Source: Nitrospirae bacterium UBA2233
Lineage (GTDB): Bacteria > UBA2233
Direction: 5' to 3'
Assembly (NCBI GenBank): GCA_002347965.1
Contig: DDYN01000057.1
Location: 11,365 to 75,364, forward strand
Length of the DNA: 64,000 nucleotides
In this document: one piece after another, positions 1 to 48,316 of the stretch
How the letters are laid out: each line of letters opens with the position of its first letter
Numbering within the stretch: position 1 is the stretch's first letter
Position numbers and translations under genes: made by a program
Notes under the pieces: generated by a model
Database searches by the model: none
The model's input: the letters and a program-made list of their open reading frames with translations, nothing else
What the model was told of the DNA's origin: nothing

Positions 1-1221
1 CAACTCGCCGGAGATCAGCTTGGGCAGCAGGGTGTCACGGAGCTGGGCGAGGGTGCGGGAGTCTTCGGTATTGTTCCTGACCTTATCATCCAAGGCGCCA
101 CAAACCCTTTCGTAGAAATCTATCAGCCTTTGATCTGGCTCAACGAATGGCAGAACCTCAAACTGCTTTCTGTTTATCGCACCAAACACTGTCCCAGTAT
201 GTTCAAATTGTTTCAATTCTTCTTGCAGTGACCATATTGCGTGGTATGTGAATGACCTCGCCCCGGAAGCGTGCCGGACAGCAGCTACACCGCGACCTAT
301 ACAGCACTTCTCCCAAGCCAGATTTATGTCTCCAACCGGTGCGCGAACACTCACCAAGGTGTCTTCGGCGTTTGCAATCCTTGTCGGCGCTGAACAGTAC
401 TTCCTATTTTCCGGGTAGCGAAATCCGAAGTCCGTCTTGCCCTGAAAAAATGGCAAACCATCGCCAATGTCGTTGTATGTGTCGCCGGGAGGTGACTGCC
501 CCATCGTTAAGCTGAAGCACTCACCAACCTTTTTTCTCTCCCACCCCTCCGGCTTGCCCTCGTCGTCAAGGCGGTCGGGGAAAAGCTGCCAGAGCTCGTC
601 GGGGAGGTAGGGCTCACGGCCTTCCATCTTGGCGCGGATGGGGCCGAAGTCGACGAACCAGTCCTTGAATAGGGCGCGGGCCATAGCCTCCAGGGTCTGG
701 TTGCGGCGACGGTTAAGTTCAATCTTATCATCCAGCGTGCCCAGGATATGAGCGATGGCGCGCTGTTCGGGGAGCGGTGGCAAATCAATCTCAAAACGAC
801 CGAAAGCTGACTTGCTCAAGATCGGTTGAGCCGAACCACCGGCGGAACCGCAGATTTCCGATTTCCTTGTACTAAGGTTGTAGTAAACAAAAAGTGGTGA
901 ATCATCCGTCTCAATGATGATGCTGTTGATTTGCTGGTTGGTTACGCAATCGGTCCCGGCCAATGCAGCCTTGCCCATATCGGAGCCAATGCAGGACACC
1001 ATGACTGCATTCTTTGGAATCGCAGCGTTTTTCACCAACGATCGGCCGGATGTGGACAAGGTCCTTGCCGTGGTCGAGATGGTGCGAGCGCCATTCATGT
1101 CTGATGGCGTAATGAAAGGAATATTTCCCCCGAAAGCATCAACAGCGCTTGATGGCGGCGTCTTTCCTGTCACGATGCGACCAAGCTGGTTGAGTGTCTT
1201 CGTCTTCCACTCACCCTCCAT
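1..1221 (-). CDS. hsdS: Type I restriction-modification specificity subunit HsdS, two target-recognition domains; 3' end runs off the window start
   Basis: Manual minus-strand translation from ATG at 1221: MEGEWKTKTLNQLGRIVTGKTPP... The central conserved region GRFEIDLPPLPEQRAIAHILGTLDDKIELNRRRNQTLEAMARALFKDWFVDFGP is a hallmark HsdS motif. The frame stays open to position 1. It is absent from the ORF track because no stop lies inside the window. Confidence 0.8.
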   Translation of the reverse strand, partial: MEGEWKTKTLNQLGRIVTGKTPPSSAVDAFGGNIPFITPSDMNGARTISTTARTLSTSGRSLVKNAAIPKNAVMVSCIGSDMGKAALAGTDCVTNQQINSIIIETDDSPLFVYYNLSTRKSEICGSAGGSAQPILSKSAFGRFEIDLPPLPEQRAIAHILGTLDDKIELNRRRNQTLEAMARALFKDWFVDFGPIRAKMEGREPYLPDELWQLFPDRLDDEGKPEGWERKKVGECFSLTMGQSPPGDTYNDIGDGLPFFQGKTDFGFRYPENRKYCSAPTRIANAEDTLVSVRAPVGDINLAWEKCCIGRGVAAVRHASGARSFTYHAIWSLQEELKQFEHTGTVFGAINRKQFEVLPFVEPDQRLIDFYERVCGALDDKVRNNTEDSRTLAQLRDTLLPKLISGEL

Positions 1222-1370: not shown

Positions 1371-3068
1371 TCATTTCGGTGCCTTTCGGTAAGCAACGCT
1401 CCGTCCACGTTCACCTTCGCGAACGACAAGACCTTGCTGTGCCAACCGATCGAGCAGCCGGTAGGCTTGCGGGCCTGTAATCCGGCACAACTCCGTCGCC
1501 TCGCGCCGGGTGATCCGTCCGTGCTTTTCCACGTACTGCAATACCATCTGCTCCTGCTGTAGCGGCTCGAAGCCTCGCTGCCGAACGTAGCCCGCCTTGT
1601 CGTCCAGCAGACGATAGAGCGCCGCGGACAAATGCCATGTGCGGCCTTTCTTTTGACCGCGCTCTTCCACCAGACCCGTCTCCACCAGGCGGTGCAGCAC
1701 GCCGCGCCCGTCGGATTCCGGCTTCTGGACGAGCCGGGCCGCCTCCTCGGTGGTCAGTTCGCGCGTTTGCCACAAGGCGTTGAGGATAAGTAGTTCGTCG
1801 AGCGCAAGATCGCGCCCTTGCTGGGCTTCGGTGACCAGTAACCGCACGAAATCGAGATTGGCCGCTCCACCCGGGATAACGACGCTTACCGTGGCTTCGT
1901 TGCTGCGTGCGTAGGACGGCGCCGGACGGCCGTTGCGCAACTGTTCATAGAAGATGGTGTCGATGCCGCGCGCGGTGCGCTCGACGATGCCGGCGCGCTT
2001 GAAAGCGTCGGCGAGCAAGGGGTTACGCGGGCGTGGCGCGGTGACGAGCAAGTTATCCAGCCGCACGCCTTCGGGAAAGCCGCCGGGGTTGGTGATCTCG
2101 ATGTGATCGCTGTACCACTGAAAATGCACGGCTCCTAGGCGGAGATAGTCGCGGTGGATGAGCGCGTTGGCCAGCGCTTCGCGCAGGGCGCGCTCGGGAT
2201 AGTCCGGCACACCCACGCGCAGCAGCCCGACCATCAGCTCCTGCTCGCGATTGCGCGCGCGGATGCGCGCTTCGATCTCCTCCACGACTCGCAGGAGAGG
2301 CCAGCGAAAGAAATCGTTGACCTCCACGTCGAGCCCGCGCAGCACCTGGAACGCGACTTCATGCGCAGGGACGAAGCGGCGCAGCGCATCTTCCTTTCCA
2401 AACAGCAGCAGCGCCGCGAGGCGCACGCCGTACACGCTGCCATTAGCCTCCACCACGCCCAGCGCCTTGGCGAGCTCCAGATCCGGCAGCACTAGCAGGC
2501 TTTCGTCGCTGCGGCCACGCCGCTCGCGTACGCTGCGCCGGAAGCGCTCGAACTCCAGAGGGTCGAGGTTCTCCCAGCGCGCCTCGGCGACGAGTTGAGC
2601 CGATGGATCGAGCAACCTCCGGCCGGATTGCAGCGACTGTACGGCGTAGGCGTCCATCGGCACGCAGGCGGGTTTGCCATCACCGCCTATCACGCGCCGC
2701 AGAAACACACCGTCGGCAGTCGCCACCGGTTGCTGCTGGGGCGGTATTTCGATGACCAGTACCGTCGCATCGTTCACCTTCACTGTTTGGACTTGCACCG
2801 ATAAGGAAGGTCGGGTACGACTCGCGACCAGGGCAGCAAGCCGGTCAAGATCAGTGGTTGTGCCGTGTCTGGGGTGTGCGCCGGTGATCCGGCCATCATC
2901 CTCGACGCCAATGAGCAAACGACCCGGCTCGCCGTCGGACCTGTTGGCTAAGCATGCGACAGCCTCAACGAGGTCACGGTCGTTAAGCGAACAGCGCTCC
3001 TCGCCCTTGAACTCGACAGCCAGTGTTTCACCCCTCGTAATCAGGCGCTGAAGTGCATCGGGTGTCAT
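1371..3068 (-). CDS. Schlafen/AlbA_2-like putative DNA-binding domain + HATPase_c_4 (RecG C-terminal-like ATPase) + two winged-HTH protein (COG2865-like), embedded between hsdM and hsdS
   Basis: 565-aa ORF. The N-terminus LAVEFKGE...DLVEAVACLANRSDGEPGRLLIGVEDDGRITG matches the AlbA_2/Schlafen fold. The C-terminus carries HTH-like segments (LLILNALWQTRELTTEEAARLV; HGRITRREATELCRITGPQAYRLLDRL). It is co-oriented with hsdM and hsdS and tightly spaced. Confidence 0.65.
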   Translation of the reverse strand: MTPDALQRLITRGETLAVEFKGEERCSLNDRDLVEAVACLANRSDGEPGRLLIGVEDDGRITGAHPRHGTTTDLDRLAALVASRTRPSLSVQVQTVKVNDATVLVIEIPPQQQPVATADGVFLRRVIGGDGKPACVPMDAYAVQSLQSGRRLLDPSAQLVAEARWENLDPLEFERFRRSVRERRGRSDESLLVLPDLELAKALGVVEANGSVYGVRLAALLLFGKEDALRRFVPAHEVAFQVLRGLDVEVNDFFRWPLLRVVEEIEARIRARNREQELMVGLLRVGVPDYPERALREALANALIHRDYLRLGAVHFQWYSDHIEITNPGGFPEGVRLDNLLVTAPRPRNPLLADAFKRAGIVERTARGIDTIFYEQLRNGRPAPSYARSNEATVSVVIPGGAANLDFVRLLVTEAQQGRDLALDELLILNALWQTRELTTEEAARLVQKPESDGRGVLHRLVETGLVEERGQKKGRTWHLSAALYRLLDDKAGYVRQRGFEPLQQEQMVLQYVEKHGRITRREATELCRITGPQAYRLLDRLAQQGLVVREGERGRSVAYRKAPK

Positions 3069-3164: not shown

Positions 3165-4746
3165 TCAAAACCCAAGCGCCTTTAGGTTGGCCTTAATGGC
3201 TGCGTCGAGCTTGGCGGCTTCCTGCTGCTGCTCGCGCCACTGGCTTGTCAGGCGCTGCATCTTCTCCTCGAATGGCTCGTCATCGTCTTCGATATCGGCC
3301 GCACCGACATAGCGGCCAGGGGTGAGCACATGGCCGTGCTGGCGGATTTCCTCTAGGTTGGCTGATTTGCAAAAACCGGAGATGTCTTTGTATGCCCCCT
3401 CACCCCGACCCTCTCCCAGTGGGAGAGGGTCGGGGTGAGGGTCAACGGTACACCAGGCGTGGTAGGTGTCGGCGATCCTGCGAATGTCCTCCTCGGTCAG
3501 TTCACGGTGGGTGCGATCCACCATCACGCCCATCTTGCGGGCATCGATGAACAGCACCTCGCCACGCCGGTCACGCAGGCCCTTTCCGGGGTTCTTGTTG
3601 CGGGCAAGGAACCACAGGCAGGCGGGAATCGGTGTGGAATAGAACAACTGGCCGGGCAGGGCGACCATACAGTCCACAACGTCGGCTTCGATCATCGCTT
3701 TTCGAATCTCGCCTTCGCCAGACTGGTTGGAGCTCATAGAGCCATTGGCCAGCACCACGCCTGCTGTGCCATTGGGCGCCAAGTGATAGAAGATATGTTG
3801 TAACCACGCGAAGTTGGCGTTCCCGGCTGGCGGTGTGCCGAATTTCCAACGCTTGTCGTCTTTGAGTAGTTCCCCACCCCCAATTGGAATCGTTGAAGAA
3901 CGGATTAGCCAGCACGTAGTCAGCTTTGAGGTCAGGGTGCAGGTCGCGATGGAAACTGTCGGCGTGCTCTTTCCCCAGGTTGCCCTCAATTCCCCGGATG
4001 GCGAGGTTCATTTTAGCCAAGCGCCAGGTGGTGTAATTTGATTCTTGACCATAGATGCTAATATTGCCGATTCTGCCTCCGTGGGCCTCGACAAATCTTT
4101 CCGACTGGACGAACATACCCCCAGAGCCGCAGCAGGGGTCATAGACCCTGCCACTATAAGGGGCCAGCATCTCCACCAGCACGCGAACGACACAGCGGGG
4201 CGTGTAGAACTGGCCACCCTTCTTGCCCTCAGCGCTGGCAAACTTGGAGAGGAAATACTCGTAGACCCGGCCGATGATATCCTTGGAGCGGTTGGCTTCA
4301 TCCCCCAAGCCGATGGTGCCGATCAAGTCGATCAGCTGACCAAGGCGCTGTTTATCCAAGTTTGGGCGGGCGTAGTCCTTGGGCAGCACACCTTTGAGCG
4401 AGGGGTTATCGCGCTCGATGGCGAGCATGGCGTCATCGAAGACCTTGCCGATGGTCGGCTGCTTGGCCACGGATTGGAGATAAGACCAGCGCGCCTCTTT
4501 GGGCACCCAGAAGATGTTGGCAGCCCGGTACTCGTCAGGGTCTTCGGGGTCGGCCCCTTGGGCACGGTCCGCTTCGAGCAAGGCATGCTGCTCTTCAAAG
4601 GCATCAGAGATGTATTTAAGGAAGATTAAACCGAGTACGACGTGCTTATACTCGGCGGCGTCCATGTTGGAGCGGAGCTCGTCGGCGGCAAGCCAGAGCT
4701 TGGATTCGAAACCGAGGTTCGCGCCGTTGTTTTTGGTTTTTGCCAT
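3165..4746 (-). pseudogene. hsdM: Type I RM N6-adenine DNA methyltransferase HsdM, split into two overlapping reading frames by a 1-nt frameshift; an authentic frameshift or a sequencing error
   Basis: ORF 3571..4746 carries the HsdM N-terminal domain ([52 protein letters not shown]) up to the catalytic [13 protein letters not shown] 3165..3989 continues the methyltransferase ([28 protein letters not shown]...LFIDAR...) in another frame. The switch maps to the tract ccccaccccc at about 3872-3883. Confidence 0.8.
3397..3441. repeat. Perfect 21-bp-arm inverted repeat (CCCTCACCCCGACCCTCTCCC-agt-GGGAGAGGGTCGGGGTGAGGG) lying in frame inside the hsdM C-terminal coding region
   Basis: Read directly from the sequence; the arms are exact reverse complements. 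It encodes the Gly/Pro-rich segment [13 protein letters not shown], and its 45-nt length preserves the frame. Confidence 0.85.
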
Positions 4747-5003
4747 GTCTGATTTCCTGTAAGAGAGCCTTGCCCCGTTTGCCCAGGCCCAGGGCTAGGT
4801 CCTCGACCTGTTTGAGCGCCGGCGGCGAGGTCTTGATACAACCGTTCATGGCTGGGTAGGTCACGCCAAACTTGGCCACAAGTTTTCCTTCTTGTTGGCT
4901 TAAGTATCGCCGTCGGTCCCCCCTACCCAGGGTCAGGCCTCTAAATACTGAAAATGAATAGGCCAGGGGCTACCATCGCTAAAAAACTAACTCAGGCCCT
5001 GGA

Positions 5004-5144
5004 CTAGGAAGGATAAGGATAATATCCACCTTGAGTACCTCCTAGAAGAGCCATACTGCCAAGAAAAGGAATGGCACTTATGAAGGCCAGCAAGAAACTT
5101 TCTGTAGACACCCACAAAGAACCAATTAAACCAAGAGTTAGCAT
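5004..5144 (-). CDS. Small hydrophobic 46-aa peptide (MLTLGLIGSLWVSTESFLLAFISAIPFLGSMALLGGTQGGYYPYPS) in a low-GC intergenic segment; candidate membrane peptide
   Basis: ATG at 5144 is preceded by GGGAGGAG at 6 nt spacing, and TAG lies at 5004-5006. The peptide is largely one predicted transmembrane helix. No homology is claimed. Confidence 0.3.
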   Translation of the reverse strand: MLTLGLIGSLWVSTESFLLAFISAIPFLGSMALLGGTQGGYYPYPS

Positions 5145-5203
5145 GGCTTCTCCTCCCTTACGTTTCCACGCGTTACTCTCACATTTTAACGCAATTCCTT
5201 GAG
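5081..5203 (+). CDS. Small 40-aa hydrophilic ORF (MKASKKLSVDTHKEPIKPRVSMASPPLRFHALLSHFNAIP) antisense-overlapping the 46-aa peptide gene
   Basis: ATG at 5081 with AAGGA 9 nt upstream. It overlaps the 5' half of the minus-strand peptide gene. Speculative. Confidence 0.15.
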
Positions 5204-5555
5204 TACTATTTTATCATTTCCTTTATCCGCCTAAGGAGCTTAAGCCTCATCGGCGATGTTCTCCTTGCCGATGCCCAGACCTCCAAGCGCGTCTATGTAG
5301 GCCCCGAGAACGGTGTTCTTGCGACCCTTTCCTTTTTGCTCGCGAATTCCTGCCGGCCATGGTCTCACAGCCTACCGTAATCCGGACAAATGATGGCGTG
5401 AGCGGCTTGCCCGTGCTTCGTCAACCCTGGAGAAAGAAGGTTCGACATAAGGTCTGCTTGGTGCTCGGCGCACATCCCTAAAGAACCCTGGCTTGGCTGG
5501 CAATAGGTATGCTAAATTAAAAGCTGCAATCACAAGACAGTAGGACATCGAAGCC

Positions 5556-6329
5556 GTGGCCTCAAAACTGTCCTCTAAGGTGCAGCTTATTGCCATAGAC
5601 TTAGATGGGACGCTTCTTGACGGGGAAGGATCCCTCGATGCAGCGGCCTTGCCCCTTATTTCTAGCATCTTGAGCAGGGGGGCCTGTGTAACCCTGGCTA
5701 CAGGCCGCGACCCCCATAGCGCAACTCACTTAAGCAGGCCGATCACATGGAGCGCCCCGCTCGTGACCTGCAACGGGGCCGTTCTTTGGGATGTCGGCCG
5801 GCAAAGGCCTTTGATTAAGCGCACAATTCCTCTGGAGGCCGTCCGAAGCTGTCTTGGCTGCCTTCCAGAGTTTGGGCTTGTGCCTTTTGTCATGGAAATC
5901 ACCGCAGACCTCCGCTTCGTCGTCCGGCCAACAACCCAAGACGACAACTTCCACGAAGTCGTCAAACTCTACGCCTCCGGCGATGTTGCCAGCGTAGAAT
6001 CGGCCAAGGCCGAAATCAAGGCGCTCTTGGACGGCACCATTTACACGACCTCCTCGTTCCACGGCAACTTGGAGGTTTGTCCGGCGGGTGTAAGCAAGGC
6101 CTCCGGCCTGGATTCCGTGGCCAAGGCGTTGGGGATCCTGCCCGAAGAAATCGCCTGCATCGGCGATGGAGAGAACGACCTCGAGCTTTTTGGCTACGCG
6201 GGAGTCCGCGTTGCGATGGGGAACGCAATCGAGCCGCTCAAGGCCATGGCGGACTTCATTGCGCCCGCCAATACCGAGCATGGCGTGGCGGCGGCCCTCG
6301 CTTGGATCTTGTCGGCAACACAACCGTAG
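5556..6329 (+). CDS. Cof-type HAD-IIB family hydrolase (sugar-phosphatase-like)
   Basis: IAIDLDGTLL motif I near the N-terminus and IGDGENDLELFGYAGVRVAMGNA motif IV at the C-terminus. Confidence 0.8.
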   Translation: MASKLSSKVQLIAIDLDGTLLDGEGSLDAAALPLISSILSRGACVTLATGRDPHSATHLSRPITWSAPLVTCNGAVLWDVGRQRPLIKRTIPLEAVRSCLGCLPEFGLVPFVMEITADLRFVVRPTTQDDNFHEVVKLYASGDVASVESAKAEIKALLDGTIYTTSSFHGNLEVCPAGVSKASGLDSVAKALGILPEEIACIGDGENDLELFGYAGVRVAMGNAIEPLKAMADFIAPANTEHGVAAALAWILSATQP

Positions 6330-45556: not shown

Positions 45557-45644
45557 TGGTGCCGAGGGCCGGAATCGAACCGGCACGGAGGAATCCCCCG
45601 AGGGATTTTAAGTCCCTTGCGTCTACCTGTTCCGCCACCCCGGC
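45557..45644 (-). tRNA. tRNA-Leu (anticodon TAA), class II long variable arm, CCA encoded
   Basis: Manual fold: acceptor GCCGGGG/CCUCGGC, anticodon arm AGGGA-CUUAAAA-UCCCU, T-arm CCGGUUCGAUUCCGG. Confidence 0.85.
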
Positions 45645-48160: not shown

Positions 48161-48237
48161 GTCCCCATCGTCTAGACGGCCCAGGACACAGGCCTTTCAA
48201 GCCTGAAACGGGGGTTCGAATCCCCCTGGGGACGCCA
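48161..48237 (+). tRNA. tRNA-Glu (anticodon TTC), CCA encoded
   Basis: GUCCCCA.../...UGGGGAC-G-CCA; near-identical architecture to canonical bacterial tRNA-Glu. Confidence 0.9.
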
Positions 48238-48241
48238 TTTT

Positions 48242-48316
48242 GGGCCGTTAGCTCAGTGGCAGAGCATCTGCCTTTTAAGCAGAGGGTCGCTGGTTCGAAT
48301 CCAGCACGGCTCACCA
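48242..48316 (+). tRNA. tRNA-Lys (anticodon TTT), CCA encoded
   Basis: GGGCCGUUAGCUCAGUGGCAGAGCAUCUGCCUUUUAAGCAGAGGGUCGCUGGUUCGAAUCCAGCACGGCUCACCA. Confidence 0.9.

Follow-up and report, generated by a model that had tools for sequence, protein, structure and literature searches.

The 64,000-nucleotide stretch analyzed here, from Nitrospirae bacterium UBA2233 (GenBank assembly GCA_002347965.1, contig DDYN01000057.1, positions 11,365 to 75,364; hereafter the window), contains a perfect 45-bp palindrome inside hsdM, the gene for the methyltransferase subunit of a type I restriction-modification (R-M) system. By its sequence, this palindrome belongs to the BoxC/PIT/TM-ECO repeat family, of which it represents an unusual intragenic and fully symmetric four-block form. 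Because its left junction is common to full cassettes, we consider it rather likely to be a cargo-less allele of a cassette that encodes a DUF559 endonuclease domain and colonizes surface loops of type I R-M genes.

The palindrome (Table 1) reads CCCTCACCCCGACCCTCTCCCA-G-TGGGAGAGGGTCGGGGTGAGGG, with two arms of 22 nt (3397-3418 and 3420-3441) that are 100% complementary around a 1-nt centre; a preliminary description of this DNA had divided the same 45 nt into 21 + 3 + 21. Its four blocks follow each other in the order CCCTCACCC-CCCTCTCCC-loop-GGGAGAGGG-GGGTGAGGG. It is the sole long perfect palindrome and the sole pyrimidine/purine hairpin of its kind in the 64 kb, in which neither a second copy nor a relaxed relative was found. 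A chance or low-complexity origin has been ruled out by shuffling and folding: the arm and the core hairpin had 0 matches in 100 dinucleotide-preserving shuffles of the window, and the palindrome folds as single-stranded DNA at -29 kcal/mol, as compared with -11 +/- 2.2 kcal/mol for shuffled sequences (z = -8.1). An intrinsic terminator or attenuator has been ruled out as well, the hairpin having no U-tract after it on the hsdM sense strand. This feature and the absence of a match at the palindrome in an Rfam search over the whole window, in which three tRNA genes were the only matches, speak against the structured-RNA role suggested initially.

Motifs of the BoxC or PIT type were reportedly treated by Bachellier et al. 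in the 1990s and by Hoyne & Maher in 2000. The palindrome, being symmetric, fits on both strands the pattern published for BoxC/PIT/TM-ECO, 5'-CCCTCNCCC-N3-6-GGGNGAGGG-N3-GGGNGAGGG-3' (Holder et al., 2015, PMC4666352), and it amounts to two motifs in inverted orientation with one central hairpin in common. Its three-block pattern is identical to the published one, and the plus-strand motif of the window is that of E. coli TM-ECO no. 20 except for two bases, the first of the loop and the one following the last block. The element had first been presented as an unclassified REP/MITE-like in-frame insertion, a reading that was right in spirit but incomplete, since the sequence fits the published family pattern instead (PMC4666352). 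The copy of the window has features of its own. It is intragenic and in frame, whereas TM-ECO is always intergenic in E. coli K-12 (PMC4666352), a location that describes one species and does not define the family. Its two inverted motifs overlap completely on the central hairpin, and its host is a Nitrospirota-like metagenome-assembled genome (MAG), with proteins matching Nitrospirota MAGs, whereas the published census counted proteobacteria, with 3610 copies across 262 genomes (Holder et al., 2015, PMC4666352), other G/C-rich triplex motifs being frequent in cyanobacteria (PMC4666352). Moreover, no function, no mobility gene and no transposase or integrase remnants were found for TM-ECO sites (PMC4666352) and the published work is without an associated gene, whereas here the motif brackets DUF559 open reading frames (ORFs). 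A scan of viral contigs for the three-block pattern gave at least 120 loci, the fourth block lacking in 145 of the 148 matches listed. Four-block palindromes occur at 120 or more metagenomic loci, mostly near gene ends or intergenic. Several of them stand in frame within real genes, encoding a sirohaem synthase (between domains), a LutB-like Fe-S protein, pol III alpha (between the NTPase and finger domains), a ResB-like protein and a TorD-like chaperone (contigs L207, L227, L255, L302 and L211), which fits the initial view that the repeat of the window was tolerated in frame.

The position of the palindrome was compared in an alignment of the best 120 HsdM homologues, taken from a much larger set. 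Most of them have a short loop at this position, the loop length among close homologues ranging from 0 to about 150 residues. P0001, which at 89% identity is the closest of the empty homologues, reads W-RGDVEATG-AYKD there and its DNA is without the repeat; relative to P0001, the window has a net gain of 11 residues, the old loop having been replaced. The preliminary description was thus correct in that the segment is extra with respect to most orthologues, but the event was not a clean 45-bp insertion; similarly, the element is a multiple of three lying in frame inside hsdM, but not within a single intact ORF, the minus-strand gene being split by an extra G. That the 15 residues are a conserved peptide has been ruled out, since they are missing from most homologues and since other genes read this DNA in three frames, so that the earlier proposal of palindromic DNA from a dispersed repeat family holds. 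Diverse forms of the repeat are found in this loop: one and a half copies of the palindrome in P0002, left-end forms in P0004 and P0018, a right-end three-block form in P0110, a similar right-end form, known from the peptide only, in P0031, and a whole DUF559 domain in P0011 and P0069. Presence and absence of the repeat are patchy among HsdM proteins that are about 80% identical. An AlphaFold2 model of the 237 C-terminal residues of HsdM, built with 33 homologues, had a mean predicted local distance difference test score of 53.7, with the insert in the lowest-confidence block, and was too poor to be used. Of note, the same loop houses in L339 (P0087) and L340 (P0037) unrelated long imperfect hairpin repeats, GTAGGGGC.GACCTGCGTGT...ACACAGGT..GC.CCTAC, which encode peptides of the form VGADLRVSP.../VGANLRVCP... 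and for which the whole loop segment folds as RNA at -42 to -50 kcal/mol.

Full cassettes, about 0.45-0.5 kb in size, occupy this very loop in other hsdM genes. In L001/P0011, the order is CCTTCACCCcggCCCTCTCCCaagGGGAGAGGG - DUF559 ORF - CCTCTCCCtctGGGAGAGGGcaGGGTGAGGG, in frame, and full cassettes are also present in L127, L129, L130, L135, L147 and L150 as well as in P0195, P0196 and P0210. Their general order is (CCCTCACCC-N3-CCCTCTCCC-N3-GGGAGAGGG) - DUF559 ORF - (CCCTCTCCC-N3-GGGAGAGGG-N2-3-GGGTGAGGG), the ends being two 33-nt triplex motifs arranged as terminal inverted repeats. The cassette is read through in frame with the host protein, the repeats encoding Pro/Gly-rich linkers. On contig L002, one and a half copies of the palindrome in hsdM coexist with a full in-frame DUF559 cassette between such repeats in hsdS (4478-6198), at the point where the hsdS gene of the window has no insert.

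The link between the window and these cassettes lies in bases outside the repeat. The window junction, tgg tgt acc gtt gaCCCTCACCC, is homologous to those of L127 and L135 (tgg cgt acc ttc ggCCCTCACCC) and of L129 (tgg cgt act tcc ggCCCTCACCC), and it differs from the empty site of P0001. Two junction types are found at this site (site A), namely W-R-G-D before PHP (type 1) in L130 and L001, with W-R-G-N before PHP in the P0196 fragment, and W-R-T-(F/V/S)-(G/D) before PHP (type 2) in L127, L135, L129, P0004, P0018 and P0002. The window belongs to type 2, and its junction bases are not part of the repeat and are not present in the empty allele. Of the features that would define the proposed DUF559 cassette, the palindrome has the host site and the outer junction of full cassettes but no DUF559 ORF between the repeat halves.

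To obtain an unbiased sample, genome contigs were searched with the DUF559 core only (a 6-sequence alignment), flanks being excluded. The 80 loci obtained represent many phyla, ANME-1 and Methanophagales archaea among them. The density of strict hairpins was 1.90/kb at 250 bp or less from the DUF559 core and 0.096/kb in the remaining 386 kb of flank, i.e., an enrichment of about 20-fold, with at least one strict hairpin near the core at 49 loci and hairpins on both sides at 17. The association is polar: with one mismatch allowed per block, the order is C-C-G in 51 of 74 cases upstream and C-G-G in 72 of 74 downstream, and distances to the core peak at 44-60 nt and 46-49 nt, respectively. The flanking peptides come in all three frames, as PSPQPSPSGRG (general form PSPxPSPxGRG), PHPGPLPEGEG (PHPxPLPxGEG) and LTPALSQGERG, and the conserved object is therefore the DNA and not the protein.

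Nearly all of these domains (78/80) are in frame within stop-to-stop ORFs of more than 300 residues. All ten hosts scanned against Pfam are HsdM, HsdR or HsdS, with several sites each, and a cruder assignment of 81 copies, by BLAST to the HsdM of the window and sequence landmarks, places nearly all remaining hosts in the same three subunits. HsdR accounts for 42 copies (31 just before helicase motif I), HsdM for 32 (24 at site B, six at site A, the loop of the window, and two at site C) and HsdS for three, between the two target-recognition domains; four copies are free-standing or unclear. With a fourth HsdM site found in the protein fragments P0245 and P0276, the insertion sites number at least four in HsdM and at least four in HsdR, in addition to HsdS (L127-L206). 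In L195, a single hsdR gene carries two DUF559 copies. For 57 of the 81 copies, the host site is shared with the nearest DUF559 relative, and for 24 it is not, which indicates that the putative cassettes are mostly co-inherited with the host gene and occasionally relocated. The bracketed ORFs match only PF04480/PF18741 in Pfam and are related to PDB 3hrl (E = 2e-19); the domains are intact, and their invariant acidic and His residues are retained. The VSR/DUF559 clade is known to include Vsr and a group I intron homing endonuclease (PMC3424549). In viral contigs, a replicate of the DUF559 sample yielded one weak locus only and was not usable. Free short DUF559 ORFs (P0203, P0214, P0222, P0236 and P0305) carry the label 'type I restriction enzyme R subunit' in one source, probably an annotation carry-over from cassette-bearing hsdR genes. 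In the open-access literature searched, we found neither a prior link between DUF559 and these repeats nor a mention of in-frame DUF559 domains in type I R-M genes. Taken as sequence associations, these statistics support the view that the repeat family and DUF559 may together be a single mobile system that targets type I R-M genes.

The association appears to extend to free-standing DUF559 genes. In E. coli K-12, ycjD (1351407-1351760), annotated as DUF559, ends in ...NRRSPSP* on a CCCTCTCCC block. A duplicated 3' fragment comes next, and then, 168 bp downstream of the gene, TM-ECO no. 9 (K-12 1351205-1351239; L327 5206-5240), which has the strand of ycjD and the C-G-G polarity of the cassettes. 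With 23 copies in 4.64 Mb, the chance of such proximity is estimated at about 1e-3. The locus is itself polymorphic for an indel, with eefRABCD in the place of ycjD in other phylogroups (PMC12817139). Ten free-standing DUF559 genes that are more distant and come from replicons of cultured bacteria were also inspected by eye, and most of them have three-block motifs or pyrimidine/purine hairpins at their sides, with a sequence that varies between lineages. Azospirillum, Sinorhizobium and Synechocystis have the CCCTCTCCC type, Deinococcus and sphingomonads the CCCTCCCC type and some cyanobacteria the CCCCC-tag-CCCCC type. A motif-agnostic detector placed hairpins beside six of the ten genes, at a density of 2.5/kb close to the gene as against 0.59/kb in the flanks, where a single array accounts for 12 of 15 matches; the background in the window is 1 per 64 kb. 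On Sinorhizobium meliloti pSymB (L336), the DUF559 gene adjoins an ISRm16 transposase, and the three-block motifs on its two sides are the same but reversed in polarity, with C-G-G upstream and C-C-G downstream. Repeat-hairpin arrays stand downstream of free-standing DUF559 in Photobacterium sp. GJ3 and N. gonorrhoeae (L333 2221-3212 and L334 1984-2566), with a regular spacing of 281 bp in Neisseria and one of about 140-200 bp in Photobacterium.

The anatomy of the cassettes suggests how the 45-bp form could have arisen. The inner hairpin of each end (CCCTCTCCC-loop-GGGAGAGGG) is itself palindromic, and the two inner hairpins are therefore direct as well as inverted repeats of each other. Slippage or recombination between them would delete the endonuclease ORF and leave C1-C2-loop-G2-G1, that is, 45 bp as in the window. 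We infer this loss of the ORF from the anatomy, and it would be in line with the partial deletions published for E. coli, where inverted motif pairs are known and deleted forms retain hairpin potential (PMC4666352). As the remnant lies in a length-variable HsdM loop and preserves the frame, it would have been tolerated. The reverse would be equally compatible: a filled allele could have converted an empty palindrome, with the repeat blocks serving as homology.

The host gene itself is damaged. It is split into two ORFs (3571-4746 and 3165-3989) by the extra G of the G5 run, a base that is not present in the two closest orthologues at the DNA level. Deleting one G from this run restores a 526-residue HsdM with 76-89% identity to the best 120 homologues, which come from many phyla. 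In addition, catalytic motif IV is NPFF in the window, through a CC>TT change, and NPPF in 120/120 homologues, the two orthologues aligned having CCG CCG TT(T/C). Because of the +1 frameshift and of this replacement, hsdM has probably become a pseudogene, although an assembly wrong at two nearby places could also account for the pair of lesions. With hsdM already broken, present-day tolerance of the palindrome is moot, and we found no evidence for a present function of the palindrome in a host gene that appears inactivated. Megablast of the hsdM region against plasmids returned short methyltransferase matches only.

Table 1. Positions in the window of the palindrome, its parts, the host gene and other features.
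Feature	Position	Strand	Remarks
Perfect palindrome, 45 bp	3397-3441	.	four-block repeat inside hsdM
Block C1	3397-3405		CCCTCACCC
Block C2	3409-3417		CCCTCTCCC
Loop	3418-3420		
Block G2	3421-3429		GGGAGAGGG
Block G1	3433-3441		GGGTGAGGG
Three-block triplex motif (BoxC/TM-ECO)	3409-3441	+	CCCTCTCCC-AGT-GGGAGAGGG-TCG-GGGTGAGGG; same motif by symmetry on the minus strand, 3397-3429
Left junction codons	3442-3452	-	tgt acc gtt ga = C-T-V-D, in place of the ancestral R-G-D... loop
hsdM, type I R-M methyltransferase subunit	3165-4746	-	palindrome in C-terminal variable loop; homologues carry PF12161 and PF02384
G5 run with one extra G relative to orthologues	3877-3881	-	+1 frameshift of hsdM
Motif IV codons AAT CCG TTC TTC	3895-3906	-	NPFF; catalytic motif of hsdM
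565-aa gene between hsdM and hsdS	1371-3068	-	'ATP-dependent DNA helicase RecG' in one source; context only
hsdS, 5' part	1-1221	-	runs off the window; central conserved region DFGPIRAKMEGREPYLPDELW without insert
tRNA gene	45560-45644	-	
tRNA gene	48161-48234	+	
tRNA gene	48242-48313	+	

Several observations weigh against a derivation of the palindrome from a DUF559 cassette. No DUF559 similarity was found anywhere in the window, where only cassette ends are present, and identity between the HsdM of the window and those that carry full cassettes is only about 72%, implying that a shared event would be old. There is no target-site duplication at the palindrome, its flanks on the gene strand (gttga and ggcat) not being duplicated. 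A deletion footprint, with loss of cargo, is only the more likely direction as against cargo that had never been gained, and the nuclease activity, cleavage site and mobility of these DUF559 domains are putative. If four-block palindromes were pure footprints, those of metagenomes might be concentrated in type I R-M genes, an expectation that was not borne out: among the matches listed, 1 of 120 lies in such a gene, in hsdM, and a search for DUF559 near these palindromes gave two matches in 690 kb, neither of them adjacent. Cargo-less copies greatly outnumber cassettes and may spread independently. The association runs from DUF559 to the repeat and not from the repeat to DUF559, as is likewise the case for RAYT and REP.

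These counts would fit an explanation in which a solo BoxC/TM palindrome inserted into a permissive hsdM loop in the manner of a MITE or a REP and was never accompanied by DUF559, the cassettes having later used such entry sites or having ends that are merely alike. Four-block palindromes are common and mostly unlinked to DUF559, they stand in frame in the unrelated genes listed above, and the occupation of the same HsdM loop by an unrelated hairpin-repeat family suggests that this loop is simply permissive. We nevertheless regard a solo insertion as unlikely, since the junction outside the repeat is common to full cassettes at the exact site and since intermediates with the same junction exist (P0004, P0018 and P0002); no transposase or target-site duplication is known for the repeat (PMC4666352), and no transposase accompanies it, the gene associated with it elsewhere being DUF559.

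Selection for a cis-acting structure, be it a DNA hairpin or triplex promoting local instability or R-M phase variation or an mRNA hairpin modulating hsdM translation or decay, would suit a very stable hairpin in a defence gene, and the published motif forms a triplex in vitro and is a marker of variable loci in E. coli (PMC4666352). However, the palindrome is missing from the closest homologue and from most others of the 120, and the forms at the site are heterogeneous and not conserved; the Rfam result and the missing U-tract also speak against such a structure, the inactivating lesions are about 440-460 bp away and not repeat-mediated, and earlier work, as summarized in PMC4666352, had detected no promoter, terminator or polymerase effect in vivo. 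Such a role therefore appears very improbable. Similarly improbable is the idea that in-frame DUF559 is a functional nicking or cleavage module of type I enzymes, the repeats being mere linker-coding DNA and the window copy a linker left after loss of the domain. Intact, in-frame domains with their invariant residues would be expected of such a module, and nearest relatives at the same host site (57/81) fit long co-inheritance. Against this, the linkers are conserved as DNA in three frames and not as peptide, the cassette is found free-standing as well as at nine or more different sites in three subunits, the nearest relative is at a different site for 24 of 81 copies, and presence is patchy among closely related HsdM proteins. 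A cargo-less allele of a DUF559 cassette stays the reading that we favor.

The cassettes and the palindrome can be compared with known systems. Rickettsia palindromic elements (RPE), which Ogata et al. reportedly described in 2000, insert in frame in protein-coding genes. As in the present case, a palindromic repeat is tolerated in ORFs, a peptide is added at permissive surface positions and the DNA is the conserved unit; in contrast, RPEs are unrelated in sequence and length (about 100-150 bp) and confined to Rickettsia, and we know of no endonuclease ORF associated with them. The REP/REPIN-RAYT system resembles the present one on paper, with numerous palindromes that are cargo-less and, in a few copies, a nuclease-type gene enclosed by inverted repeats, and the repeat sequence here appears to co-vary with the enzyme lineage. 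However, the repeats do not bracket a Y1 RAYT gene: the enzyme has a Vsr-like PD-(D/E)XK fold (DUF559) instead of being an IS200/IS605-type Y1 transposase, many cassettes are translated as part of the host protein, and transposition is putative. With homing endonuclease genes and inteins, the cassettes share a small endonuclease ORF inside conserved genes, patchy among close homologues and compatible with host gene function, this presence/absence polymorphism being seen for the full cassettes and not for the remnant of the window. No self-splicing intron or intein was found around the cassettes, the frames being continuous and Pfam showing host domains and DUF559/MTES_1575 only, without intein/Hint domains; unlike homing endonucleases and inteins, the cassette ORF is read through as an internal domain between Pro/Gly linkers, and the insertion sites are many and unrelated in sequence, so that any recognition would be of the repeat itself. 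Finally, like miniature inverted-repeat transposable elements (MITEs), the palindrome is short, non-autonomous and essentially made of terminal inverted repeats, the whole element consisting of two inverted arms, and it plausibly derives from a larger element by internal deletion; it differs from MITEs in having neither a target-site duplication nor a known transposase and in being single-copy in 64 kb.

On a broader scale, we tentatively propose that BoxC/PIT/triplex repeats are the terminal inverted repeats and the footprints of previously unrecognized mobile DUF559 (Vsr-like) cassettes, which would enter genes in frame without intron or intein, use their ends as Pro/Gly linker codons and prefer all three type I R-M subunits, DUF559 being the missing enzyme of these repeats as RAYT is for REP. 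This proposal is possible more than it is probable. The BoxC/PIT/triplex motif has been known since the 1990s and is near-identical across distant phyla, its origin having long been unexplained, and DUF559, a domain very common in bacteria, has no known function. The palindrome of the window has led to a reproducible, polar and fixed-distance association between DUF559 and the repeat, and to intact endonuclease domains in frame in HsdM, HsdR and HsdS of many phyla, including archaea. For annotation, DUF559 inserts inflate and mislabel R-M genes. If true, the proposal would explain in concrete, testable terms where the repeat comes from and would give DUF559 a candidate role, and it would reveal a third way, beside introns and inteins, for a selfish nuclease gene to reside inside an essential reading frame.

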